Below, piece by piece: positions 3,887 through 57,962 of a stretch of DNA of 64,000 bases. The position numbers were made by a program, and so were the translations under genes. The notes beneath the pieces are model-generated. The model saw only the letters and a list, made by a program, of their open reading frames with translations, was not told where the DNA came from and ran no database searches. Within the stretch, counting starts at the first letter, position 1. Each line of letters opens with the position of its first letter. Source of the stretch: a virus; the IMG/VR virus record IMGVR_UViG_3300017971_000201, positions 32,001 to 96,000 of that record; one strand, given 5' to 3'.

Positions 3887-4110
3887 TCCTCGATCCTCAC
3901 GTCAATGCCCCACACGCCCTTCTCCTCGTAGGGCTCGGAGAGGGCCTCGAACACCTGCCGTGACCCGTACAGGTGGTCCTCGGGGTCGTCCGTCTCGACC
4001 CGGAAGAGGTCGCCCATCGCCAGGTCGCGCATCCGCATCCGGCGCTCTTCCCGCTGGCCGTGCTCGTCATCGGCCACGAGGATGATCTGCCGCTTGGTCC
4101 GCGTCATCAC
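3883..4110 (-). CDS. hypothetical protein
   Basis: ORF coupled to both neighbours by 4-nt overlaps. Confidence 0.65.
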   Translation of the reverse strand: MMTRTKRQIILVADDEHGQREERRMRMRDLAMGDLFRVETDDPEDHLYGSRQVFEALSEPYEEKGVWGIDVRIEE

Positions 4111-4589
4111 GCGGCTTCCTCCTCAGTCTGCTCCTCTTCCTCGAGCCGGGCCTCTCGGGCGAGCATCTCGCGCATCCGGCGCCTGGCCGCCGCGTGGTTG
4201 ATCGGCCTGGAAGCGATCTTCTCCTCCGTCCCGTTGCCGTGGTCAGCTGGACGGCCCATGTTCTCGTCGATCGTGATGATCTCGAAGTTTGCTCCGCAGG
4301 CCGGCTTGTCCGGCACTCGCGTCACGACCAGCTCGCCCTCGTTGTCGTTGCTCCAGGGATCGGCGACCTGCAAGGCCCAGTGGACGACCTCGGTCTTGCC
4401 GCACTCGAGCACCTCATGATCGGTCTCGTAGGCGATCTCCTGCACGAAGTCGATGGCCTTCTCGGCCAAGTTGCGAGCGACCTGGCGGAAACCGACGAAG
4501 CGCTTGATCCGGCGCAGCTTCGGCCTCCTCGAAACACGGCGGTACGACAGCACGATGGGCACTGTCCCGCCTTGCACGACGTTCTCCAT
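4107..4589 (-). CDS. hypothetical protein
   Basis: ATG preceded by GGAGG; lies within the operon. Confidence 0.65.
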   Translation of the reverse strand: MENVVQGGTVPIVLSYRRVSRRPKLRRIKRFVGFRQVARNLAEKAIDFVQEIAYETDHEVLECGKTEVVHWALQVADPWSNDNEGELVVTRVPDKPACGANFEIITIDENMGRPADHGNGTEEKIASRPINHAAARRRMREMLAREARLEEEEQTEEEAA

Positions 4590-4597
4590 GTCGCCTC

Positions 4598-6403
4598 CTA
4601 CAGGCCGTTCCAGTCCTTGAGAAAGAGCCGCTCTTCGGCGGCGATCTTGTTGATCTCCTCGTTGAGGTTCTCCACGTCGCCGAACTCATTCCAGTCTACG
4701 CGGAGGACGCGAGTGTAGCGCGACATCACGTCGGCGAGCATCTCGTGCTTGTCATGGATGCGGCGGAGGTAGTCGAGGGGCACGCCGGCCTCCTCGGTGC
4801 GGGCGCGGCGTTTCATGCGGTCGTGGCAGGTCTTGGGGTCAGTCCGCAGGTAGACGATCACGTCAGGGTAGCGGACAAAGCGCTTCAGCGTCCCGAACGT
4901 ATCCTCGTAGATTCCCCACTCGGCCGACGTCATGTTGCCGTCCTCGAAGACGGTCCGGCCGAAGCAGCCATCGGCGAAGATCGTGCGGTCCTGCACGACA
5001 TCGACGCCGTTGTTCGTCAGCTCAGCCGCCAGGGTGTGCTGACGGAACCGAGCCTGGAGCGCGTGCATCTGGAACGTGAACCCCCAGCGCTTGGGGTCGG
5101 CGTAGTAGAGGCCGAGCAGCTCCTTGAAGCGTCCCTTGAGCGGCTCGAACAGGACGTGGGTCGGGCCATCGTAGCCGGTACGGAGTCGCGCGAGCATGTT
5201 GGCACACTCGGTGTTGTGCGTCACCTGGAAGTTCCCGAGCAGGAACCGGCCGTCCCCGTCGAGTGTGAAGCCGGCGTAATCGCCTCGACCCAACGGCTCG
5301 ACCGTGAAGCCGAATCGCAGCGGATTCTTCTTCTGCTTGCGTGGTTGGGGCTTCTTACGCTCGACGCGCATAGGCAGGAACGTCATGTCGCCAGAGATGG
5401 ACATTCGGTAGTAGGAGCGGTCGTAGCCCGGTACGGTCTTGATCGAACGCACAACCCGCAGTCCCAGAGAGCGCGCGACGAAGGTGATGTCGTCGGCGAG
5501 ATGCTCACCCCGCTGGATGATCTCGAAGGAGCCCTTGCACAGGTGCCCGTCCGTGTCGAGAAGCCCGGCCAGCAGCCTTGCTCTGATCTCGCGCGAACCG
5601 TACTTGCAGCGCGCGGGAATGCTGTAGCCGTAGTCCCGCTGCTCCGGCGCCATCAGATGCCGCAGCTTCTCCAGCAGCGGGTTGCCTTTCCCGTCGCGCA
5701 CGAGCCCGAACGTCGGGCAGCGGTCGGGATAGTCGTAGCGGCTCAGGCGGCACCCCTCGGTTGGAGCGAAGTCGCGCAGGTAGTCAATCAGCTCCTCGTC
5801 CGGGAACGTCAGCTGGACACCCTGGCTGAGATCCTTGCGACCATCCCCCAGCCAGAGGCCGATGAAGTAGGGGTCGATCTCCGGCTCGATCACCGGCGGG
5901 AAATCGACCGGAACGGTGAACAGCTTTTGTCTCTCACGCCACGTCTTGTCACGTGTCAGGAACTCGTTGAGTGGAATGTCGATGACCTCGTCCGTCAGCG
6001 TATCCACGACGGTCAGCACGTGTACGTCGTTGCAGATCCACGACGGCGCGCGTTTCGGCTTGATCTCGAACATGGGGCCGGTGCCGCGAGTCGTCGAGCG
6101 CACCTCGCGCGGCTGGCTGTCCGGCCCCATGAGCCGCTGGCCAACCTCGAGTCCACCGGCCTTGACGGTGTGACCATCGTAGAGCAGCACCGGCGTTTCC
6201 GGGTCCAGGCACTTCCCTGTACCGATGTTGGCCTCGATCCCAACGAAGAGACCGCGCCGCTCGCGAAGGTGGGGAAGGGCCTGCATGATCGCGTTCGTGT
6301 CGATCTCCTGAATCGCCTGCATCTGGGCCTGCACGTCGGCCTCCTCGTGTTCGTCGTCTTTGGGTTGGTTGGACATGCTGTTTCCGTCCGATCCGCCGGT
6401 CAT
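4598..6403 (-). CDS. deoxynucleoside kinase (dNK family) interrupted by an intein
   Basis: IEANIGTGK|T P-loop split by the intein; FEP, YYADPKRWGFTFQ, QDRTIFAD, PDVIVYL and RRARTEE motifs. Alternative start at 6376. Confidence 0.9.
   Translation of the reverse strand: MTGGSDGNSMSNQPKDDEHEEADVQAQMQAIQEIDTNAIMQALPHLRERRGLFVGIEANIGTGKCLDPETPVLLYDGHTVKAGGLEVGQRLMGPDSQPREVRSTTRGTGPMFEIKPKRAPSWICNDVHVLTVVDTLTDEVIDIPLNEFLTRDKTWRERQKLFTVPVDFPPVIEPEIDPYFIGLWLGDGRKDLSQGVQLTFPDEELIDYLRDFAPTEGCRLSRYDYPDRCPTFGLVRDGKGNPLLEKLRHLMAPEQRDYGYSIPARCKYGSREIRARLLAGLLDTDGHLCKGSFEIIQRGEHLADDITFVARSLGLRVVRSIKTVPGYDRSYYRMSISGDMTFLPMRVERKKPQPRKQKKNPLRFGFTVEPLGRGDYAGFTLDGDGRFLLGNFQVTHNTECANMLARLRTGYDGPTHVLFEPLKGRFKELLGLYYADPKRWGFTFQMHALQARFRQHTLAAELTNNGVDVVQDRTIFADGCFGRTVFEDGNMTSAEWGIYEDTFGTLKRFVRYPDVIVYLRTDPKTCHDRMKRRARTEEAGVPLDYLRRIHDKHEMLADVMSRYTRVLRVDWNEFGDVENLNEEINKIAAEERLFLKDWNGL
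5213..6211 (-). mobile_element. intein with LAGLIDADG homing endonuclease (333 aa)
   Basis: Starts CLDPETPV; block B CNDVHVL; LAGLIDADG motifs IGLWLGDG and LAGLLDTDG; ends VTHN followed by extein Thr. Confidence 0.92.
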
Positions 6404-31983: not shown

Positions 31984-33959
31984 TACGCACCAGCCGAGGA
32001 GAGGAACAGCTTGAGCCTGGTGTCTCCGGCGATAGTGATGTCAATTTGGCCGGTGGTCGTTCCCGAGCCGGTGATGTCGATGATCTCGATCTCATCGAAA
32101 GGGGCGCTGTAGAAGTTCTGCTCGTCCCACGAGGCAAAGCCGCCGCAAAGGGCTCTGATGGTATGACCCATGCCAGCCGAGAAGCTGTGAGAGTTCAGCG
32201 GACCCGGGTTGTAGCCAGAGGACGGGTACCAACCACTCCCAGCCCACGGTGTGATCTGGGTGAAGCCATCGCCAATTGGACCTGTTGGTCCGGGAGCGCC
32301 TGTGACACCCGGGTCACCAGTCGGCCCAGTCTGGCCGATCTCGCCGACCGTCACCTCGCCATCGCCGGTCTCGACGACCTGTCCGCCGCCGTCGCGGAAG
32401 TTGACCGTGTGGAACGGGCCGCCGGCGAGAGGAGAGCCGGCATTCTGGATGTTGATCGCTCCCAGCTTCGCGCCCGCCTGAGACAAGAGGACGCGGCCCG
32501 GCTGCGTGGTAGAGGCGTCCGGCAGCGGCGGCTTGCCGCCTGGCATGTGGTGGATGAGGCGCTGATCGGCCATGCCGGTCTCAAGCGGAACGAAGGCCGG
32601 GAAAATGAACCGGATGGTTGTCGCCGCATCGGCCTCCGCATCGACCTCAACGCCGAGGATCTTCTTCAGCTCCAGTGTCCAGCGACGCGATGTCAGGCCG
32701 CCCGACGAGGCGTTCGGCCCCTGGTACTCGTCGGCCAGCTCGATCAGCTCGTCCGAGAAGATCGTCGCGATCTCGTAGTAGAGCCCATCGGCTCCGAGTA
32801 TCGTGTCGCCCTCCTCCAGCTCGCCCTGCGCCTGACCGCCGGCGATCGTGACGGTCTTCTGTGCGTTCGAGAAGGTGTAAACACCGGTGAGCGTTGCCTC
32901 TACAGGACCGGTCACACGACCGAAGATGACACGCCTGGTGTCGATTCCATCGAGTAGCCGATAGCCGGTCGTGGCGTCCAGCACGATCGAGATGTTGCGC
33001 ACGTCGTCGTTGGGCGACGAGATGGCCCCGCGCGCGCCCTCGGCTCCCTGCCCGTCGAGGGTGATCTCGGGCTTGTGATCCCGGTTGACCTCCGAGAACG
33101 AGCCGGAGACGTTGACCGACGTGTCGCCGGCCTCGATCAGGTAGTCGTTGCTTCGCAGCACCACCAGGACGAAGCCGAGCCTGCCGCCCATCGATGGAGC
33201 GCTCTGGTCGGCCTCGAGCCGCTCGGAGAGCGTGTCGTAGACGGTGGAGTCCAGCCCGATCCGAGCTGCGGCCATCTCGTTGACGATCTCGACAGCGGTC
33301 TCAAGATCTTCGACTGAGCCGGCGGGCATGAAGCCGAATTCGACGCCGTCGTAGGCCAGCGGCGCGTCCCGCAGCATGTCCAAAGGGTGCGTGTGGCCGG
33401 ACGCCGTCTGTACGACGCCGGCCACGACCGTGTGGAAGTGGCCATCATCGGTAGAGGAGGTACCGTTGAGACTGGCGTCCAACTCGACCGTGTGGGTGTG
33501 GCCGAAGCGCAACACGAGCCTGTAGGAGATCGTCATCGCCCCGGCGTTTCCGGTCACGACACAGATCAGCGTCTCGTCGAAGGCCACCGGTCCAGCTGAC
33601 CTGGTGATGATCTCGGCCGATGTCTGCGCTGACCCGTCGGCTGTGTACGAAGCTCGGGCGATCACGTGGATCGGGAAGTCACCGGGGGGCTGTCCGGTGA
33701 AGTCCAGGGAGACGTTCGAGTCCAGCGCGACGGTCAAGTTGCCAGGGTCGTCTTGTGAGGCCGTCTTGAGGAGTGAGAACCCCTCGGCAGGGTCGGTCAC
33801 CAGGTTGAGCACCGGCGAGGCCACGGTCGGCGTGAAGCCGACGTAGACGCCCTTCGGCATCCCGCCGAACTTCTGGACCAGAGGGGCCGACTGCCACTGG
33901 TCGGAGTAACCGAGCAGTGCGTTGCCCAGGGTGAAGTACTCGACGGGGTAGATGGCCAT
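31983..33959 (-). CDS. tail fibre protein, paralogue 2 (His-rich insert)
   Basis: PKGVYVGF, SMGGRLG, YYEIATI, FHTVNF and collagen repeats. Confidence 0.75.
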   Translation of the reverse strand: MAIYPVEYFTLGNALLGYSDQWQSAPLVQKFGGMPKGVYVGFTPTVASPVLNLVTDPAEGFSLLKTASQDDPGNLTVALDSNVSLDFTGQPPGDFPIHVIARASYTADGSAQTSAEIITRSAGPVAFDETLICVVTGNAGAMTISYRLVLRFGHTHTVELDASLNGTSSTDDGHFHTVVAGVVQTASGHTHPLDMLRDAPLAYDGVEFGFMPAGSVEDLETAVEIVNEMAAARIGLDSTVYDTLSERLEADQSAPSMGGRLGFVLVVLRSNDYLIEAGDTSVNVSGSFSEVNRDHKPEITLDGQGAEGARGAISSPNDDVRNISIVLDATTGYRLLDGIDTRRVIFGRVTGPVEATLTGVYTFSNAQKTVTIAGGQAQGELEEGDTILGADGLYYEIATIFSDELIELADEYQGPNASSGGLTSRRWTLELKKILGVEVDAEADAATTIRFIFPAFVPLETGMADQRLIHHMPGGKPPLPDASTTQPGRVLLSQAGAKLGAINIQNAGSPLAGGPFHTVNFRDGGGQVVETGDGEVTVGEIGQTGPTGDPGVTGAPGPTGPIGDGFTQITPWAGSGWYPSSGYNPGPLNSHSFSAGMGHTIRALCGGFASWDEQNFYSAPFDEIEIIDITGSGTTTGQIDITIAGDTRLKLFLSSAGA

Positions 33960-50538: not shown

Positions 50539-51066
50539 CTACACCTGGGGCACGGGCAGCGGCAGGATCTCGACCCGCTCGACCGAGAGGGTCAGCTCCT
50601 CCATCACGACCTCGGAGCCGGAGGCGTCCAGGTCGGTCGCCGGCCGCCATGTGGACGGGATGCAGTCACGCAGCCAGAGCATCCGCTGTGGAATCCGCTT
50701 CTGGTTCCGGGTCTGGACGACGATGAGACTCCGCCGGGGCGCGACGCGGCCCCAGACGACCTGCTGGAACCAGAGCCACATGTCGAGGTTCGTGTTGAAG
50801 ACCGCGAAGCGGATCGTGCACTCGCCGCCAGCGACGTAGCCCTGCGGCACGTGGTGCGTGAACGGCCAGTTCCCCTCGCGGATGTCCTTCATGTCCACTG
50901 TCATCTCGGGGATCGAGATCGACTGGAAGCCGACGTAGCTCCCGTTGTTGATCGCGCTCTGGACGGCCTTGACCGGAAACGCGGTGGGGAAGACGCCGGC
51001 AACGGGAACATCCAGCAACGCGAAGTTGTGGCTCAGGAGCGGATCACTGTTCACCGATCTAGCCAT
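50539..51066 (-). CDS. tail tube-like protein 2 (T4 gp19 family)
   Basis: DPLLSHNF, GFQSIS.PE, IREGN, CIPS.W....LDASGSEVVMEELTL; TAGGAT 6 nt before the ATG. Confidence 0.85.
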   Translation of the reverse strand: MARSVNSDPLLSHNFALLDVPVAGVFPTAFPVKAVQSAINNGSYVGFQSISIPEMTVDMKDIREGNWPFTHHVPQGYVAGGECTIRFAVFNTNLDMWLWFQQVVWGRVAPRRSLIVVQTRNQKRIPQRMLWLRDCIPSTWRPATDLDASGSEVVMEELTLSVERVEILPLPVPQV

Positions 51067-51075
51067 GGCGCCATC

Positions 51076-52935
51076 CTACCGCGTCTTGAGCTTGCGCCGC
51101 TTCCCCTTCTTCGGCCGGATGCCCAGACCGCCGAGCACCTTCTTCTTGAGGTGCTCGGGCGCTCCAGCCAGCTGAGCCTCGAGCCACGCCTTGCCCTTTG
51201 GGTTCTCGAGCGGCTTCGCCAGGATCCGCGTGGCGAACCGGTGCATCCTCGGCTCGATCTCGGTGCGGAACTCGACGCTGCTCGTGTCGTACGTCCCCTT
51301 GTTCTCGATCTCGTAGTAGCGGTGACCGAACTTCTGCTTGTAGACCTGGGCGGCCTTCGCCACCGCCTTGTGCGAGGCGACCACATCTGCGTCAGGAACC
51401 GTCCGTCCCCGTGCTTGGTTGCGGGCGCGGGCAACGTCGAGAGGGGTGACCACCATCACCATGGAGCAGTCGTAGCCGAGGTCTTCGAGCGCCCTCTTGC
51501 CTTTCAGGATGTAGGTGGGGTTCTTGGCGGTGCCATCGACGACCATGCCGAGCCGCCCGCGCGCGAATTGCTCGCGCTGATTCATCATCGTGTACCACGA
51601 GCGGTCGTGCAGCTCCTTCCCGATCGATGGGAACTTGGGGTTGTCAGTCGGTAACTGGAAGGCCGTCTTGAGATCGATGCCCTTCTGCCGTACGCGCCAG
51701 GCGAAGATCTCGTCCATGCTCAGCGCCTTGAGCCCGAAGGCTGCGCCGAGCTGGCTGCCGAGCTTCCCGAACATCGTGCCGGCGGTGAAGCTCTTGCCCG
51801 AGTTGTGGTGGACGGCTCCCTCGGCCACGTAGTTCGCCCAGCGCGGCACGGTCAGGTCGTAGTAGACCCCCTCACCCGCTGGCTTGATCGTCCGCACTCG
51901 TTTCCACATGCTATGATAACGGCATGACGCCACAGCAGCTTGATGAGATGGAGCGCCTCTACCAAGAGGGCTGGAACTCGGTCCAGCTCGGTCTTCGCTA
52001 CGACCGAACGCCGCCGACGATCCGCTACCACCTACGGAAGCGCGGTGCGACGGTGCGCTCCCGTGGAGAGGCGAACCGGCTCCGCGCCCCGAGCGCGCGC
52101 TGTCAGGTAGACGAAGCGAAACTGCGCGAGCTTCACGGTCGGGGTCTGAGAACGAGGGAGATCGGGTCTGCTCTTGGTGTAAGCGCGGAGACTGTTCGCC
52201 GCCGCCTGCGAGACCTGGGCATCGCTCGCCACCAGCGCGGAGCGCCTGGGGAGCGGAATCGTCACTGGCAGGGGGGCCGCATCGTGGACGACGATGGCTA
52301 CGTGCTCGTCCACCGACCGGATCACCCGTTTGCGACGAAGGCCGGCTACATGCGCGAGCACCGGCTGGTGATGGAGGCGCACCTGGGTCGCTACCTTGAT
52401 CCGTCTGAGGTTGTCCACCACGCAGACAAGAACCCGCAGAACAATGCGCCGTCGAACCTGAAGCTCTACGCGACGAACGCAGAGCATCTTCGGGACGAAC
52501 AGACCGGAGTTCCGAAGAACGTGTCACCGGAAGGTCGCCGCAGGCTGCAAGCCGCTGGTCGCAAGAGTGGCGCAACTCGGAGAGCGAAAGCCAGCCGGAA
52601 GGCGTCAGGAAGCGGTGCTCGTCAGTCACGGTGACGCGCGACCCGTCCTCCAGCTCGATCTCGTGCAGCTCCGCCACACCCTTCACAAACGGCGCGTTGC
52701 ACTCGACCGGCTCGAACCCATCCGGTGTCAGTGCAAGTACGGTGATCGGCCCTCCGCGCTCGGCCAGCGCGTCTACGCGCTCCTCCAGTCCCGTACGCGG
52801 ATCGAGGATCTTCGTGTGCGGCGCGATGCAGCCCATACCGCCGCCGAGGAAGATCACCTTGAGGATGTGCGGATCGAAGACGCCTTCGTGCAGGCTCCGG
52901 GCAGCTGCCGGAACGATCCGCTCGAACAGGCACAC
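51076..52935 (-). CDS. P-loop kinase (AAA_33/zeta-toxin-like) interrupted by an intein
   Basis: KVIFLGGGMG|SGKS, GRLGMVVDGT and GYD.SMV.V.TPLDVARARN..RGRTVP; GTG 52935. Confidence 0.8.
   Translation of the reverse strand: MCLFERIVPAAARSLHEGVFDPHILKVIFLGGGMGCIAPHTKILDPRTGLEERVDALAERGGPITVLALTPDGFEPVECNAPFVKGVAELHEIELEDGSRVTVTDEHRFLTPSGWLSLSELRHSCDQRLAACGDLPVTRSSELRSVRPEDALRSSRRASGSTAHCSAGSCLRGGQPQTDQGSDPGAPPSPAGARACSRPSSQTGDPVGGRARSHRRPRCGPPASDDSAPQALRAGGERCPGLAGGGEQSPRLHQEQTRSPSFSDPDREARAVSLRLPDSARSGRGAGSPLHGSAPSHRASVGGSGSSAAFGRSEDRAGPSSSPLGRGAPSHQAAVASCRYHSMWKRVRTIKPAGEGVYYDLTVPRWANYVAEGAVHHNSGKSFTAGTMFGKLGSQLGAAFGLKALSMDEIFAWRVRQKGIDLKTAFQLPTDNPKFPSIGKELHDRSWYTMMNQREQFARGRLGMVVDGTAKNPTYILKGKRALEDLGYDCSMVMVVTPLDVARARNQARGRTVPDADVVASHKAVAKAAQVYKQKFGHRYYEIENKGTYDTSSVEFRTEIEPRMHRFATRILAKPLENPKGKAWLEAQLAGAPEHLKKKVLGGLGIRPKKGKRRKLKTR
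51909..51917 (+). promoter_or_regulatory. extended -10 (TGcTATGAT) for a leaderless HNH mRNA
   Basis: Lies 6 nt before ATG 51924; no RBS present. Confidence 0.6.
51924..52634 (+). CDS. HNH homing endonuclease, antisense within the intein
   Basis: Two HTH repeats, WQGG...DGYV, and YMREHRLVMEAHLGRYL...VVHHADKNPQNNAPSNL. Confidence 0.88.
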   Translation: MTPQQLDEMERLYQEGWNSVQLGLRYDRTPPTIRYHLRKRGATVRSRGEANRLRAPSARCQVDEAKLRELHGRGLRTREIGSALGVSAETVRRRLRDLGIARHQRGAPGERNRHWQGGRIVDDDGYVLVHRPDHPFATKAGYMREHRLVMEAHLGRYLDPSEVVHHADKNPQNNAPSNLKLYATNAEHLRDEQTGVPKNVSPEGRRRLQAAGRKSGATRRAKASRKASGSGARQSR

Positions 52936-52936
52936 G

Positions 52937-53470
52937 CTAGTACAGGTTCTTGCCGCGCTGCTTGTCCGCCGCGTCGGCACAGGACTCCGCAGCCTTGGCC
53001 GCCGCACGGAGCGACGAGACCAGAGCCTTGTGCTTGGGCTCCATCTTGGAGAGTCCGGGGTCCTTCCAGCGCTTCTTCTCGGCCCACATCCGCTCGCATG
53101 TCGTGGCCGCATCCTCGAGCGCGTACTGGAGATCGCGCTTGTTGATGTAGCGACGGGGCATCATGCCCATCATCTCGTGGAGAGGGTTGCGGCCGTCGTC
53201 CTGATCCTGTTCCTGCTCGGTCAGGCCGGCCAGCTTGTCGAACTGTCCCATCGTGTCCTCCTGGGCGCCCTTACCCTTCATGCGAACGATGGCAAAGCCC
53301 GCCCTCTTGAGGGCACTTCGGATCGCGAGCACCTTGTCGTACGGCTTGGTGAACTTCTCACCATGCTGCAAAGCCTTCAGGAGAGCGGCGTCCACCTCCT
53401 TGCGCTTGGCGATCTTCTCGCCCGCGTTCTTGGCCTCAACCAGTCCCGCCCTCTCGTCGAAGTGCCCCAC
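52937..53470 (-). CDS. hypothetical protein, possible head-internal protein
   Basis: RBS GAGGAG; two M-G-x-F-D-x-x-AGL-x-E units. Confidence 0.65.
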   Translation of the reverse strand: MGHFDERAGLVEAKNAGEKIAKRKEVDAALLKALQHGEKFTKPYDKVLAIRSALKRAGFAIVRMKGKGAQEDTMGQFDKLAGLTEQEQDQDDGRNPLHEMMGMMPRRYINKRDLQYALEDAATTCERMWAEKKRWKDPGLSKMEPKHKALVSSLRAAAKAAESCADAADKQRGKNLY

Positions 53471-53485
53471 CGCCGCTCCTCTACG

Positions 53486-53746
53486 TCATCCCTGGATGGC
53501 CTGGTCAAGGTGATCAATGGCCGTACTCACCGCACCTCTGGCTCGCATCGCTTTGTGCACGCGACGATCGAGCGATTGGCGTGCGCCAGGCTTGGCGACC
53601 TTGAGCTGCTTGCGGACCAGGGCCTCGATCGTCTTCAGCCTGTCGCCAATTCCCTCCAGCGAGGACTTGGCCGACATGAGCGAGGACACCGCCGCCTCGG
53701 CTTCCACAAGCGACTCATCCTCGATCACGCGATCGAACAGGCTCAT
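53486..53746 (-). CDS. hypothetical coiled-coil protein, possible head-internal protein
   Basis: MSLFDRVIEDESLVE start. Confidence 0.65.
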   Translation of the reverse strand: MSLFDRVIEDESLVEAEAAVSSLMSAKSSLEGIGDRLKTIEALVRKQLKVAKPGARQSLDRRVHKAMRARGAVSTAIDHLDQAIQG

Positions 53747-53786: not shown

Positions 53787-54272
53787 TTACGCGGAGATGA
53801 TCTCGACCTCCAGCTCCTCGAGAGTGAGCGTCAGCTCTTGGAGCGCGACCTCGGAACCGGTAGCGTCCTTGTCGGCCATCGGCTTGACCGTGGACGGCCA
53901 GCACTCGCGCAGGCGCATGATCCGGGAGGGCGACCCGTCGATCCCGAACTCGTCGGTGATGTGGAACTCCATGATCATCAGGTCGGAGCGGTAGGTCTCC
54001 GCTGAACCGTTGATCACGTCGATGATCCACTTGTAGAAGTCGGACTCCCGCTGGACCGTGCCCTTCATCAGCTGGCACTCGCCGACGGTCTGGATGCCGG
54101 GGAACTTCCGGGTCCAGCGGTACACGCCCTCGCGGTACTCCGCCGGATCGATGCTGACCTCGGGGGTCGAGACCGTGGAGAACCCGGCGACGGGGTCGAG
54201 ATGCCCGCCGGCCGGGTCCACGACGTGGAACCTGTAGTTCAAATACGGATCTGTACTTGCAGCGCGGGCCAT
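53787..54272 (-). CDS. major tail tube protein (T4 gp19 family)
   Basis: DPYLNYRFHV, AGFS.VS.PE, EYREG, RKFPG, CWPS and DATGSEVALQELTL..E. Confidence 0.92.
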   Translation of the reverse strand: MARAASTDPYLNYRFHVVDPAGGHLDPVAGFSTVSTPEVSIDPAEYREGVYRWTRKFPGIQTVGECQLMKGTVQRESDFYKWIIDVINGSAETYRSDLMIMEFHITDEFGIDGSPSRIMRLRECWPSTVKPMADKDATGSEVALQELTLTLEELEVEIISA

Positions 54273-55171
54273 TAGCTCACCCTCCGTGCGTTGGTCTTGT
54301 CGAGGATACCTTGTCGATCGCGAAGCTCACGGTAGGTAAAGCCAAGCGAATTGAGCTTCCGTTCGTCCCAGATGGAGAACGGCAGGCTTGGATGGTCCTG
54401 CGTGAAGGCTTCGATCAGGCGATCCTGAGTCTTAGTCCGCCGACCCTTCACATCGATGAGGTTGACCAGCGCGCCGTCATCGTCATAGACCCAGAAATCA
54501 GGCGTGTACCTGCGAGGCTTGCCGGACCGGGTTCGCAAACTGTCGAGGTCGTAGCTGGTCACCTCGTAGATCCAGGTCAGCGCTTGCTGATCGAGCCACC
54601 AGGCCGCGAGCACCTCCCACGAGGATCGCATCAGGAACTCGCGGCCGAGCCTGTCGGTGAACGACCACTTCTTCCCGCGATGGTTGAACCCCTGCGGCCG
54701 GAGCCTGGCTCCAACCCGATGCAGCAAGAGATTGATGCCGGTAAGCGACATCCTGTAGTACTTGGCAAGCTCGGTGGTCGTGCGTCCTGCCGCATAAGCG
54801 GCGGCGATCTCGCGCTCCTTCGCGTCCGACCACCGCTTGTTCCGGTGGCCGGTCGCATCGCGCTCAACGCCAGCAGCGCGCAGCGTGTCGTAGACGCAGT
54901 CCTGCCCAACACCCAGTGCTGCCGCGATCTTAGGACCGCTCTCGCCCGATTGGTAGCGGCGTACGACCTCCGACCGCCGCTTCTTATCGAACTTGACGTG
55001 CCCCATGTTCTTCCGCAGCCGCTTGAGGCCCAGCTTCGAGGCCCGCGTCCGAACAGCCATAGGAGATCGACCTGGCAGCCGGTCAGCGCACCACGACGGA
55101 CCGTGGTCGGGGTACGAGGCGCGAAGCACCTCGTCCTCCTCCCTCGTCCATCTGGACGCTGCACGAGCCAT
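54272..55171 (-). CDS. free-standing PD-(D/E)xK homing endonuclease with HTH repeats
   Basis: Myb-like WTREEDEVL and HTH repeats, then MRSSWE...WIYE...YTPDF...IDVKG. Confidence 0.8.
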   Translation of the reverse strand: MARAASRWTREEDEVLRASYPDHGPSWCADRLPGRSPMAVRTRASKLGLKRLRKNMGHVKFDKKRRSEVVRRYQSGESGPKIAAALGVGQDCVYDTLRAAGVERDATGHRNKRWSDAKEREIAAAYAAGRTTTELAKYYRMSLTGINLLLHRVGARLRPQGFNHRGKKWSFTDRLGREFLMRSSWEVLAAWWLDQQALTWIYEVTSYDLDSLRTRSGKPRRYTPDFWVYDDDGALVNLIDVKGRRTKTQDRLIEAFTQDHPSLPFSIWDERKLNSLGFTYRELRDRQGILDKTNARRVS

Positions 55172-55199
55172 GTCTGTCTCCTATCCTTGCCCGACCCGC

Positions 55200-57962
55200 C
55201 TACGAGATCTGCGTGCCGACCGGCTGCTGGAGGGTGAAGATGATGAACTCCGCCGGCGTGCCGGGGTTGAACCCGATGTCGATGATCGCCTTGCCATCGG
55301 CCACGGTCGCGGCGTTGTTGTTCGTGGCGTTGCACGTCACGAAGAACGCCTCGGCCTCGGTCTCGCCGGCGAAGTAGCCGAGACGGAACAGCGAGCCGTA
55401 GTAGCCCTTGAGGGCGGTCTCGATCTTCGCCCACAACGGCGGCCCGTTGTTCTCGAACACAGCCCACTGGAGGTTGAGGCTGGTCGCGTACATCAGGAAC
55501 ATGTGCAGCGTGCGCGCGTTGATGTATCGCCAGCGCCTCTCTCGCGAGAGACTGCGAACCCCCCAGACGGCGATCCCGGTCGCGTCGCTCGAGATGATCG
55601 GGTTGATCCTCGACTGGTAGAGGTTGTCCCGGTCGGTCTTCTCCAGCACGAACTCGGCGGCGACGACGCCGACCGCGTTGAGCGCGCCGTCCTCGACACC
55701 ACCGGGGGCCTTCCCGACGTTCTTGACGTTCGCCGTGCGAGCGTAGACGCCGGCCACGAGCGGCGACACCGGCACCAGCTCGACCCGATCGGTGAGCGGG
55801 TTGACGAAGTAGATGTTGGGGTAGTACATCGCCCCGATCTTCTCGTCCCACGCCTGGTCGACCTGGATGTACTTGATCGCCTCGCTCACGGTCGTGCCGT
55901 TGGCGTAGCACATGATCAGGTAGCGCAGGTCCGGCCGGTTCTTGGCGAACTGGACCATGTCGAACTGCACGAATTCCGAGCCCTCGAAGTCCGGCACCAC
56001 GACGTTGAGGGGCTCCTCGACCAGGTCGAGGGCGTAGATCCCCTGCTTGCTGGACTCCAAGGCGGCGGCCGAGATGTCCGCGCGGGTGACGGCCGTGCCG
56101 TTGACACCGCCGGACATCTGCCACTCCGCCGAGTCGGCGAGCCCGGTGTAGTTGCCCAGGATGGCGGTGCCGGCCGTCGGCGCGCTGTCCCAGGTCAGGT
56201 CCCAGGCGCCGGTGTCGTAGTCGATCGTGTTGGCACCGGCCGCGTCCACGTCTCCGACCAGGTTGCCGAGCCCATCGTCGGTCGCGACCTGGCCCGACTG
56301 GTAGTCGGCGTCGATCGTGGTCGTGTTCCTCGGGGCCACGAGCGTGGTGAGGGCGATGATCCCGGTGACGTAGTCGACCGAGCCAGCTGCACCAGCGACA
56401 CCGCCCAGCTCGGTCAGGTCTCCGGCCACGTCGCCGTTCACGATCCCGAGCGGAACGTAGTCCACCAGGATGTCCGTGCTGCCGATCGGAGCCACCGAGG
56501 CTTCGAAGTCGATCAGGCCGCTCTGGGTCGGGTTGGACACGTCGTCCACCAGGTCGATCGTGTTCGTGCCCACGCCGAGCGCGCCCGCGAGAGCGACTCC
56601 CTGCTCCAGGTTGTCCGTGCCGGCCGCCTTGGTGATGATCGCCGACGCGTTGTAGGTCGCGATGACCGTGCTGGTGAGCACCAGCCCGCCGCCCAGCGAT
56701 CCGGTCACGAGCCCGGTCATGGCACCGGTGACGTAGTTGATGGTCCCGCCGCCCGGCATGGCCAGGGGGTTCACCAGGTTGCCGAGCCCGTCGTCGAGGA
56801 TGACCTGCGCGCCGTCGTCCACGGTCGTCACCGCGATGGCGACAGTGCCGGGGTGAACCGGCGTGCCGGTCAGCGGTGCCGTGCTGAGGTCGTAGTTGCC
56901 ACCCGGCGACGACGCGACCAGCGTCTCCGGCGAAGGACCGGCCACGATCGCGTAGCGGAGCTGGAAGACCGTGTTCTCCCGGTAGACGGGAGCGGTCAGC
57001 GCGCCAGCCGCGATCTGGAAGGACGTGTCGGCTCCGTTGACCGTGCCGAGCGCGAACGGGCCGCTGCCGAGGTTGTCGAACTGGTTGCTGACCTTGGCGT
57101 AGAACAGCCGCAGGCTGCCGTCGAGCACCGGCGTCGTCGGGAGCGTCATCGCGAACGATGTCTCGATCCCGTCGACCGCCGGTGTTGGCGTCTGGCCCTC
57201 GTCGTCCTGCTGGGCATCGGCCGCGACGATCCGCAGCGTGTTGTCCAGGCAGGCGCCGGCCGAGAGCGTCCCCGAGAACTGCGTGTCGATGCCGTTGACC
57301 GATCCGCCGGCCACCAGCACCTCGTCCTCCTCGTATGAGGGGAGCAACCCGCTCGGCGTGCCGCCCGCGCCTTCGGTGATCTCCACCAGCTGGGAGGGCC
57401 GCCGGGGATCGGTGAGGACGGTGGTGACGTAGTCGGCCGCGTCCGGGTCGGTGAACTGGACCGCCTCGTAGGTCTCCTCGGAGACGAGGATCGAGGCGTC
57501 GAACTCCGAAGGACGGAGGACGAGCAGGTCGAACTTCCCCCACTGCTCGGCGCCGGCCGTCCGGTCGAGGAAGTTGCGGTTCCCTCGGATGTGGATCCGG
57601 GTCGTGTTCCCCCAGGTCCCCTCACCCTTCATGGTGAAGGTCCACTTGGTGGGGCCAGGCGACGCGTCGATGTTCGCCCACGCCGAGATGGCATCGGACG
57701 GAACCACACGGACGATGTAGGCCCGCTGTCCACCGTTCCCGAAGAAGCCCTGGATCCCGATCGGGACCAGACCTAATGACGAGATCTGGCCGAAGACCCG
57801 CTCGAACTCGACGGTCGAGCGGACCTCGACCGGCGTGTTGCTCGGTCCCTCGTCGGTCCATCCGACGAACGCCGCCTTCGCGGGAGAGATGCCCTCGGGG
57901 GCACGAGACGGCTCCTTCTCGAAGCCGTAGACACCTGGGCTGAGGATTTCGAGTTGGGCCAC
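55200..57962 (-). CDS. contractile tail sheath protein
   Basis: SPGVYGFE, AFVG.T..GP, FFGNGG.RAYIVRV, KAPGG, RINPI, VWGVRSL, WRYINAR, WAVFENN and PAEFIIF. Confidence 0.95.
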   Translation of the reverse strand: MAQLEILSPGVYGFEKEPSRAPEGISPAKAAFVGWTDEGPSNTPVEVRSTVEFERVFGQISSLGLVPIGIQGFFGNGGQRAYIVRVVPSDAISAWANIDASPGPTKWTFTMKGEGTWGNTTRIHIRGNRNFLDRTAGAEQWGKFDLLVLRPSEFDASILVSEETYEAVQFTDPDAADYVTTVLTDPRRPSQLVEITEGAGGTPSGLLPSYEEDEVLVAGGSVNGIDTQFSGTLSAGACLDNTLRIVAADAQQDDEGQTPTPAVDGIETSFAMTLPTTPVLDGSLRLFYAKVSNQFDNLGSGPFALGTVNGADTSFQIAAGALTAPVYRENTVFQLRYAIVAGPSPETLVASSPGGNYDLSTAPLTGTPVHPGTVAIAVTTVDDGAQVILDDGLGNLVNPLAMPGGGTINYVTGAMTGLVTGSLGGGLVLTSTVIATYNASAIITKAAGTDNLEQGVALAGALGVGTNTIDLVDDVSNPTQSGLIDFEASVAPIGSTDILVDYVPLGIVNGDVAGDLTELGGVAGAAGSVDYVTGIIALTTLVAPRNTTTIDADYQSGQVATDDGLGNLVGDVDAAGANTIDYDTGAWDLTWDSAPTAGTAILGNYTGLADSAEWQMSGGVNGTAVTRADISAAALESSKQGIYALDLVEEPLNVVVPDFEGSEFVQFDMVQFAKNRPDLRYLIMCYANGTTVSEAIKYIQVDQAWDEKIGAMYYPNIYFVNPLTDRVELVPVSPLVAGVYARTANVKNVGKAPGGVEDGALNAVGVVAAEFVLEKTDRDNLYQSRINPIISSDATGIAVWGVRSLSRERRWRYINARTLHMFLMYATSLNLQWAVFENNGPPLWAKIETALKGYYGSLFRLGYFAGETEAEAFFVTCNATNNNAATVADGKAIIDIGFNPGTPAEFIIFTLQQPVGTQIS

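Follow-up and report, generated by a model that had tools for sequence, protein, structure and literature searches.

Homing elements that need no splicing and that replace the end of the gene they enter have so far been published only for yeast and fungal genes, and there only at the 3' end. In the yeast WHO elements ('weird HO', Coughlan et al. 2020) at FBA1, a nuclease gene is accompanied by a resistance-conferring replacement gene end, and the displaced fragment acts as a recombination arm (PMC7282813); at the WHO6 site, one third of synonymous changes conferred resistance (bioRxiv 10.64898/2026.08.13.744650). Endonuclease open reading frames (ORFs) of fungal mitochondria, such as those in Allomyces macrogynus atp6, Ophiostoma rps3 and Phlebia radiata atp6 and cox2, bring a replacement C-terminus, as summarized in PMC4019555 and PMC7902536. 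For phages, the reviews describe free-standing nucleases that lie between genes, insertions that split a gene, and collaborative homing, but not the capture of a start with supply of a replacement (PMC10448857, PMC2988022); no phage counterpart of gene-end replacement was found in the literature searched, which covered few subscription journals. Here we consider a 64,000-nucleotide stretch (the window, positions 32,001 to 96,000) of the IMG/VR virus record IMGVR_UViG_3300017971_000201, in which a gene for a 299-residue nuclease stands between the tail sheath and tail tube genes, in the minus-strand order sheath, nuclease, tube. We think it quite probable that an 899-base homing cassette has replaced the start of the tube gene here; its parts are the nuclease body, a new ribosome-binding site (RBS) and respelled tube codons 1-7. 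The record measures 159.7 kb with a G+C content of about 65%, and its CheckV completeness of 58% at that length therefore indicates a jumbo T4-like phage.

With the tube protein as query, IMG/VR yielded seven loci, three with tubes 97% identical to that of the window (L002-L004) and four at 71-76% identity (L005-L008), and in all seven the sheath gene runs directly into the tube gene without a nuclease, which is what the original prediction had expected of empty sites. The tubes of L002-L004 open with ATG GCT CGT GCA GCG TCC ACT GAT CCG; the start foreseen for an uninterrupted tube is therefore present in them at 19 of 19 bases, and the spelling GCC CGC GCT GCA AGT, found at the present tube start of the window, is absent from these empty sites. 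The displaced start is the first 19 bases of the nuclease gene, homology to L002-L004 stopping after TCC A, and on the right-hand side the homology restarts at GAT CCG, that is, at codon 8. Judged by these empty sites, the original tube coding sequence of the window was entered after its base 19 by an insertion of 899 bases, which agrees with the predicted entry after codon 6; the final 21 bases of the insertion re-encode MARAAST with other codons.

The upstream side of the junction tells the same story. The AGGAG behind which the nuclease starts lies 17 nt past the sheath stop codon (55202..55200), and because this spacer and its RBS share homology with the spacer that separates sheath and tube in the empty sites, the nuclease uses the old start of the tube, as had been supposed. 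The GGAGGG now ahead of the tube has no counterpart upstream of the tube in empty sites; both this motif within the 3' end of the nuclease gene and the TAATG overlap were confirmed by direct reading, and the overlap, which couples nuclease and tube, is also present in L009. The original start (spacer, RBS, ATG and five codons) has been stranded and fused in frame to the nuclease, and the tube has been restarted from the cassette's own RBS by way of the TAATG overlap. The sheath gene, whose product is 88% identical in amino acids (aa) to that of L002, forms the left homology flank of the element. The distribution is that of a free-standing homing gene, with a precise empty site and patchy presence among close relatives: nuclease-free L002 is closer to the window than nuclease-bearing L009, and the filled locus L015 and the empty locus L007 share 94% tube identity.

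The two copies of the start can be read side by side on the minus strand. The nuclease ORF opens with ATG GCT CGT GCA GCG TCC and the tube ORF with ATG GCC CGC GCT GCA AGT, followed by ACA, so both begin MARAAS, and every codon after the ATG differs (5/5 codons, 7/15 bases), exactly as first noticed. The idea of a synonymously recoded replacement start also stood; only its extent had been drawn too short, since the recoding reaches codon 7 (ACA, compared with ACT in the empty-site relatives). Chance identity of the two starts is ruled out, because MARAAS is the only N-terminal hexamer seen twice among the 557 ATG starts with at least 60 open codons in the window, and because the two genes are adjacent. 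Compared with L002, tube codons 2-7 differ at 6 of 6 codons and 8 of 18 bases, against 34 of 155 codons (22%) and 36 of 465 bases in the remainder of the gene, an excess with P 1.1e-4 for codons and 2.8e-5 for bases. The features discussed here and below are collected in Table 1.

Table 1. Features of the sheath-nuclease-tube locus and of related loci (positions are those of the window unless a related locus is named; z scores refer to the predicted hairpin over the nuclease start unless stated otherwise; MFE, minimum free energy).
Feature	Location	Strand	Detail
Tail sheath gene	55200..57962	-	920 aa; Pfam Phage_sheath_1/1C; PHROG 23 tail sheath, E 1.7e-45
Original sheath-tube spacer, now ahead of nuclease	55172..55199	-	aligns with L002-L004 empty-site spacer
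AGGAG RBS, originally of tube, now of nuclease	55182..55178	-	6 nt before nuclease ATG
Displaced original tube start (ATG, 5 codons, 1 base)	55153..55171	-	left insertion junction
Nuclease gene	54272..55171	-	299 aa; open frame, free-standing, homing-endonuclease-like
Three helical DNA-binding modules, aa 7-152	54716..55153	-	Myb/SANT-like, then HTH_23, then third HTH (helix-turn-helix)
PD-(D/E)xK nuclease domain, aa 165-283	54323..54679	-	T7 endonuclease I-like
Catalytic E186	54614-54616	-	
Catalytic D225	54497-54499	-	
Catalytic D240	54452-54454	-	
Catalytic K242	54446-54448	-	
GGAGGG, new tube RBS inside nuclease 3' end	54280..54285	-	7 nt before tube ATG
TAATG overlap, nuclease stop and tube start	54270..54274	-	read directly
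Replacement tube start (ATG and codons 2-7, MARAAST)	54252..54272	-	right end of inserted cassette
Tail tube gene	53787..54272	-	161 aa; intact, continuous; Pfam Phage_T4_gp19, E 7.6e-16
Predicted mRNA hairpin, first 155 nt of nuclease mRNA	55045..55199	-	inverted repeat I1; window (filled) MFE -87.3 kcal/mol, z -5.45, 0/200 shuffles as good
New tube start of window (tube side)			z -1.2
L002, empty site with same RBS			hairpin absent, z +0.28
L009, filled			nuclease start MARAAS, tube start MARAAS; z -4.0, same long-range helix forms
L010, filled			nuclease start MARAAAT, tube start MARAAAT; z -3.6
L012/L013			nuclease start MARAAST, tube start MARAAST; L012 (filled) z -3.5
L014			nuclease start MARSAT, tube start MARSAN (tube paralogue)
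L015, filled			nuclease start MARAA, tube start MARAAAT; z -5.4
L015, second nuclease			nuclease start (V)ARSIT, tube start MARSIS (tube paralogue)
L017			nuclease start MARAVE, tube start MARAVD
L021, filled			nuclease start MARAAL, tube start MARAAS; z -2.5
RF00028 intron, L012	L012:4859-5142		69 bits
RF00028 intron, L013	L013:2571-2854		69 bits
RF00028 intron, L019	L019:3400-3680		62 bits
RF00028 intron, L020	L020:3412-3698		78 bits

Set beside the WHO elements, the locus shows the same splicing-free combination of a nuclease with a replacement host-gene end, a displaced original end beyond the nuclease that could be used as a homology arm, and a replaced end that has diverged far beyond the remainder of the gene. 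It differs in affecting the gene's 5' end, where WHO affects the 3' end, and in that its displaced piece, 19 coding bases plus an RBS, is not dead but reused as the translation start of the nuclease. The enzymes differ as well, those of WHO being HO/VDE-type, intein-derived LAGLIDADG proteins with a zinc finger and that of the window a PD-(D/E)xK nuclease with HTH modules, as do the hosts, a phage against a yeast chromosome; the window element, moreover, is known from sequence alone. By this comparison the window element is an analogue of WHO by mechanism, not a member of that family. In phage T4, mobA and the gene 60 bypass cassette reportedly form another pair in which a nuclease travels with a short target-altering sequence; there, too, the target is altered inside an essential gene whose protein stays functional, but that gene is split and depends on translational bypassing, whereas the tube gene of the window is whole and carries only synonymous changes. 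Unlike intron- or intein-borne nucleases, the window nuclease does not lie within a self-splicing RNA or protein element; Pfam found no Hint/intein domain in it, it ends at its own stop codon, and the tube ORF beyond it is continuous.

The fungal mitochondrial ORFs resemble the window element in being endonuclease insertions into a coding region that are joined in frame to host codons, and in that the host gene stays whole thanks to a duplicate or foreign end; they differ in lying at the 3' end of organellar genes, in encoding LAGLIDADG or GIY-YIG enzymes and in capturing neither an RBS nor a start codon. The intronless homing nucleases of T4-like phages, Seg and Mob, are likewise free-standing beside conserved genes, patchy among relatives, overlapping with and coupled to a neighbour, and provided with RBS-sequestering hairpins (PMC2988022). 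Unlike the window element, they are intergenic or split a gene into two polypeptides, they are GIY-YIG or HNH enzymes and not T7-endonuclease-I-like, and none is described there as capturing the start of its target while supplying a respelled one (PMC2988022).

The arrangement is not peculiar to the window. A profile of the nuclease domain recovered 6,127 family representatives at E <=1e-3, and each of the 12 members examined has a tube gene (PF06841) as its immediate downstream neighbour, which is tube 1 in some loci and its paralogue in others. At least 8 of these 12 homologues, and the window nuclease in addition, share the first 5-7 residues of the tube. The pairing recurs with lineage-specific peptides, the first residues of the nuclease following the local tube's own peptide lineage by lineage, and in no case does the junction leave the interval from base 14 to base 21 of the tube's coding sequence. 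From these loci the nuclease family is seen to be tied to tube-gene starts across many phage lineages. In L015 both tube paralogues are preceded by family nucleases (862-1911 and 4001-4903), each with the peptide of its own tube, and on the contig of homologue P0004, a near twin of L012, which was analysed in its place, one nuclease ends in MARAASTDL and another precedes tube 2. The tube gene of L017 is flanked by two unrelated nucleases, the PD-(D/E)xK enzyme upstream and a GIY-YIG (LEM-3-type) endonuclease directly downstream (L017:3918-5045).

One might ask whether the shared N-terminus is instead a functional signal for both proteins, for example in translation initiation or targeting, given that the tube proteins of the clade conserve MAR(A/S)xx(T/S)DP and that many nuclease lineages retain the peptide in frame. 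The empty sites show, however, that the upstream copy is where the tube originally started, spacer and RBS included. The nucleases of L011 and L016 are wholly without a captured tube peptide, and in L019 and L020 the copy survives only as a stub: in L019 (2473-2502) nine codons followed by a stop, in L020 (2455-2490) a decayed remnant without an ATG, the nuclease in each case having a start of its own. The homologues outside tube starts (L011, L016 and L020) open with MKLSKD, VGKASK and MQKRW, respectively, and the possibility that homologues at unrelated loci would also begin MARAAS did not materialize. In view of the stubs and the peptide-free homologues we reject the shared peptide as a required signal, and of all the explanations considered here we find the functional-signal one the least credible. 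Both stubs also point to the same break region without relying on an in-frame fusion. The stop codon of the L019 stub abuts the GTG of the nuclease, which suggests reinitiation.

A second kind of target alteration occurs at the same place. In L012/L013, L019 and L020 a group I intron without an ORF interrupts the tube at codons 9-12, just behind the nuclease, with scores above the Rfam RF00028 gathering score of 50; in L016 a group I intron appears to start at the end of the contig. A wobble pair in P1 of the L012 intron sets the 5' splice site after base 25, and the predicted joined L012 product, MARAASTDFYLNF, is exactly the peptide that L021 encodes without an intron. Gene callers miscall these intron-bearing tubes as shortened or over-extended products of 122-216 aa. 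In collaborative homing a free-standing nuclease cuts at the insertion site of an intron (PMC10448857), with examples in cyanophage psbA/F-CphI, in T3/T7-like phages and at the ICP1 terminase (PMC10448857, PMC6083498). The intron-bearing relatives have this layout, with the nuclease directly upstream of an intron-bearing tube, which suggests that enzymes of the family cut the tube start at about bases 15-35. The window differs in having no intron (Rfam found none between 53500 and 55400), and its respelled start appears to take the place of the intron as the target-altering device.

In the nuclease protein, Pfam recognizes HTH_23 (E 1.7e-7), with weak Myb and HTH_58 matches, and at the domain level Foldseek pairs the HTH region with Myb (1h88) and the bipartite Tc3 domain (1u78) at probabilities of 0.96-0.99, the AlphaFold2 model being confident, with a mean predicted local distance difference test score of 91. 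For the catalytic domain, the PD-(D/E)xK branch considered was that of T7 endonuclease I and DUF1064 (PF05367, PF06356). Built from the C-terminal domains of seven homologues, a profile picks up T7 endonuclease I (1m0d) at E 0.009, and its SSWE, TPDF and IDVKG motifs align with the catalytic residues of 1m0d, all four positions being matched; these positions are invariant or nearly so among 44 homologues, and homologues P0016 and P0024 carry precomputed, unmarked Phage_endo_I matches. The E ... PD ... (D/E)xK motif in a restriction-endonuclease-like fold is thus present, and at the domain level Foldseek matches the nuclease to TnsA (1t0f/1f1z, probability 0.97-0.99). The whole-protein Foldseek comparison gave domain-level matches only, with low global template-modelling scores and without T7 endonuclease I among them. 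Intact catalytic residues combined with sequence-reading modules fit a free-standing homing endonuclease gene. When the locus was compared with 50,697 phage records, blastn gave no match; tblastn gave only a 30% match, to endonucleases of BcepSauron and BcepSaruman; an IMG/VR pattern search with the nuclease returned no relative, the relatives having come from protein databases.

One could imagine a transposon-like insertion with target-site duplication in place of homing. The fold match to TnsA, the resemblance of the binding modules to Tc3/mariner-type domains, and the copies in L014, which are nearly identical including the RBS region as if freshly duplicated, would agree with such an origin. 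Pfam, however, detects no transposase or integrase domain in or beside the element; the gene always occupies one type of site, the tube start; and the junction varies between bases 14 and 21, unlike a staggered cut of fixed length. We dropped this explanation because there are no terminal inverted repeats at the ends of the element, and regard it as very improbable.

A nuclease domesticated as a junction resolvase or for the exclusion of competitors, vertically inherited and lost in some lineages, deserves somewhat more attention, although we consider it unlikely too. The catalytic domain does resemble a resolvase, the gene is translationally coupled within a late tail operon, and the nonsynonymous substitution rate divided by the synonymous one (dN/dS) is 0.22 against the 74% identical L009 homologue, a sign of purifying selection. 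Precise loss, however, would need to leave behind a tube start that is intact to the base, and three sequence-reading HTH modules typify site-specific homing enzymes, not resolvases. Vertical inheritance with losses also sits poorly with homologues that stand at tube starts in 12 of 12 cases in very different phages, several of them with ORF-less group I introns, and with a synonymous rate in the window/L009 pair of 0.93 for the nuclease, twice the 0.45 of both flanking genes, tube and sheath. This difference hints at a nuclease history separate from that of the flanks. Competitor exclusion and homing are, besides, mutually compatible.

Returning to the start-replacing cassette, we need to consider several points that weigh against it. 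All of the relatives are metagenomic contigs. There is no sign of a co-conversion tract, window and L009 being no more alike near the nuclease than farther off. The profile match to T7 endonuclease I reaches only E 0.009, the Pfam DUF1064 match lies below the curated cutoff (20.5 bits against 24.7), and T7 endonuclease I is a junction resolvase, not a homing enzyme. Finally, the respelling is weak in L014 (1/12 bases) and L017 (2/17), synonymous divergence between the window and L002 already stands at about 30% (pS, the proportion of synonymous differences, 0.30), and part of the respelling may be due to age or to an allele from a donor lineage.

These last points lead to the alternative that we take most seriously, though we hold it to be distinctly the less probable: that the cassette is as described but the respelling is without function, immunity coming from the split site alone and the codons from drift or a distant donor allele. 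The degree of respelling varies among lineages from 1/12 to 7/15 bases, the switch of serine codon from TCC to AGT would be more easily imported than evolved in place, the start of the window tube differs from the L005-type allele (CGC GCT GCA AGC) by no more than 3 bases but from L002 by 8, and the high synonymous background works in the same direction. Because the respelling is strong only in the window, and there close to the L005-type allele, part of it may derive from a donor lineage or from age; and because the other lineages are recoded much less (1/12 to 6/18 bases), it is not a fixed requirement of the design. Yet six of six changed codons far exceed the background (P 1e-4). The tube starts of L009 and L015 each differ at 4 of 6 codons (P 0.07 and 0.05), and the asymmetry is consistent, the nuclease-side copy departing from the empty site at 0 of 5 codons in the window and at 1 of 5 in L009, although, given the roughly 30% background synonymous divergence, the nuclease-side identity to L002 is not significant by itself. 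Single synonymous changes at the WHO6 site often give resistance, and for that reason the respelling plausibly prevents self-cleavage; loss of the cut site might be due to the recoding rather than to the insertion itself.

Let us assume, then, that the cassette is active. In a mixed infection the nuclease would cut the uninterrupted tube start of nuclease-free relatives, around bases 15-35, and the break would be repaired from the cassette-bearing genome, homology being supplied on the left by the displaced start and the end of the sheath gene, and on the right by the tube body beginning at codon 8. With no splicing of RNA or protein, the nuclease would thereby pass to the recipient along with the replacement start. 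A genome with the cassette would be immune, its target being split by the insert and the regenerated half respelled, and the respelling would also abolish a direct repeat through which the nuclease could be deleted or bypassed. The element would in this way home actively.

A restraint on the captured start may lie in the predicted hairpin. It pairs the RBS and start (55167-55184) with nuclease codons ~33-38 (55059-55076), folds far better than shuffled sequences in the window and, to varying degrees, in the other filled loci, and is absent from the empty site with the same RBS (Table 1). RBS-sequestering hairpins are known to control homing nucleases of T4 (PMC2988022). The hairpin, by burying the captured RBS and start, would throttle translation of the nuclease, and it probably damps expression from what was a strong start of a late structural gene. 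No sigma-70-like promoter or intrinsic terminator was found in the window between 53600 and 55500.

Going one step further, we lean, with less assurance than for the cassette itself, towards the view that these loci represent a distinct and recurrent class of phage homing element in the first codons of essential genes. Such an element would be neither intron, intein nor intergenic gene and would carry a resistant replacement start, the displaced start doubling as the hairpin-restrained translation start of the nuclease and as the left homology arm. Within the class, one T7-endonuclease-I-like nuclease family specialized on tail-tube starts would switch among three means of protecting its own genome: respelling the start, a group I intron lying a few codons farther downstream, or the two combined.

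The precise empty sites and the many independent lineages indicate that a homing nuclease can occupy an essential phage gene without splicing, by a swap of the start, and would extend the mechanism of the yeast WHO and fungal mitochondrial elements to phages, to gene 5' ends and to another nuclease superfamily. One target shows three layouts, with a respelled start, a stub or a group I intron without an ORF, and these bear directly on the question of how collaborative homing arose; if our interpretation is true, they would form a natural series of free-standing nucleases and ORF-less introns coming to cooperate. For annotation, duplicated and differently spelled gene starts around a nuclease flag an element and its likely cut site, and short tube calls beside such nucleases often conceal introns. 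The enzymes of the family are, in addition, candidate long-site modular nucleases with a cutting domain of the T7-endonuclease-I type.

Lastly, the neighbourhood of the element has some features of its own. A second tube paralogue of 175 aa, starting MARSVNSDP (window 50539-51066, minus strand), has no nuclease in front of it; the nuclease of the paralogous tube, absent here, is present in the relatives L014 and L015. The stretch between tube and kinase (52937-53746, minus strand) differs in length between the window and L002, and holds in the window an additional 86-aa ORF and a longer 177-aa ORF that internally repeats an MG(H/Q)FD..AGL motif. The kinase gene itself, AAA_33/zeta-toxin-like (window 51076-53112, minus strand), carries an intein (Intein_splicing), within which an HNH endonuclease ORF lies on the opposite strand (51924-52634, plus strand); the kinase orthologues of L002 (328 aa) and L009 (273 aa) are without the intein insert.

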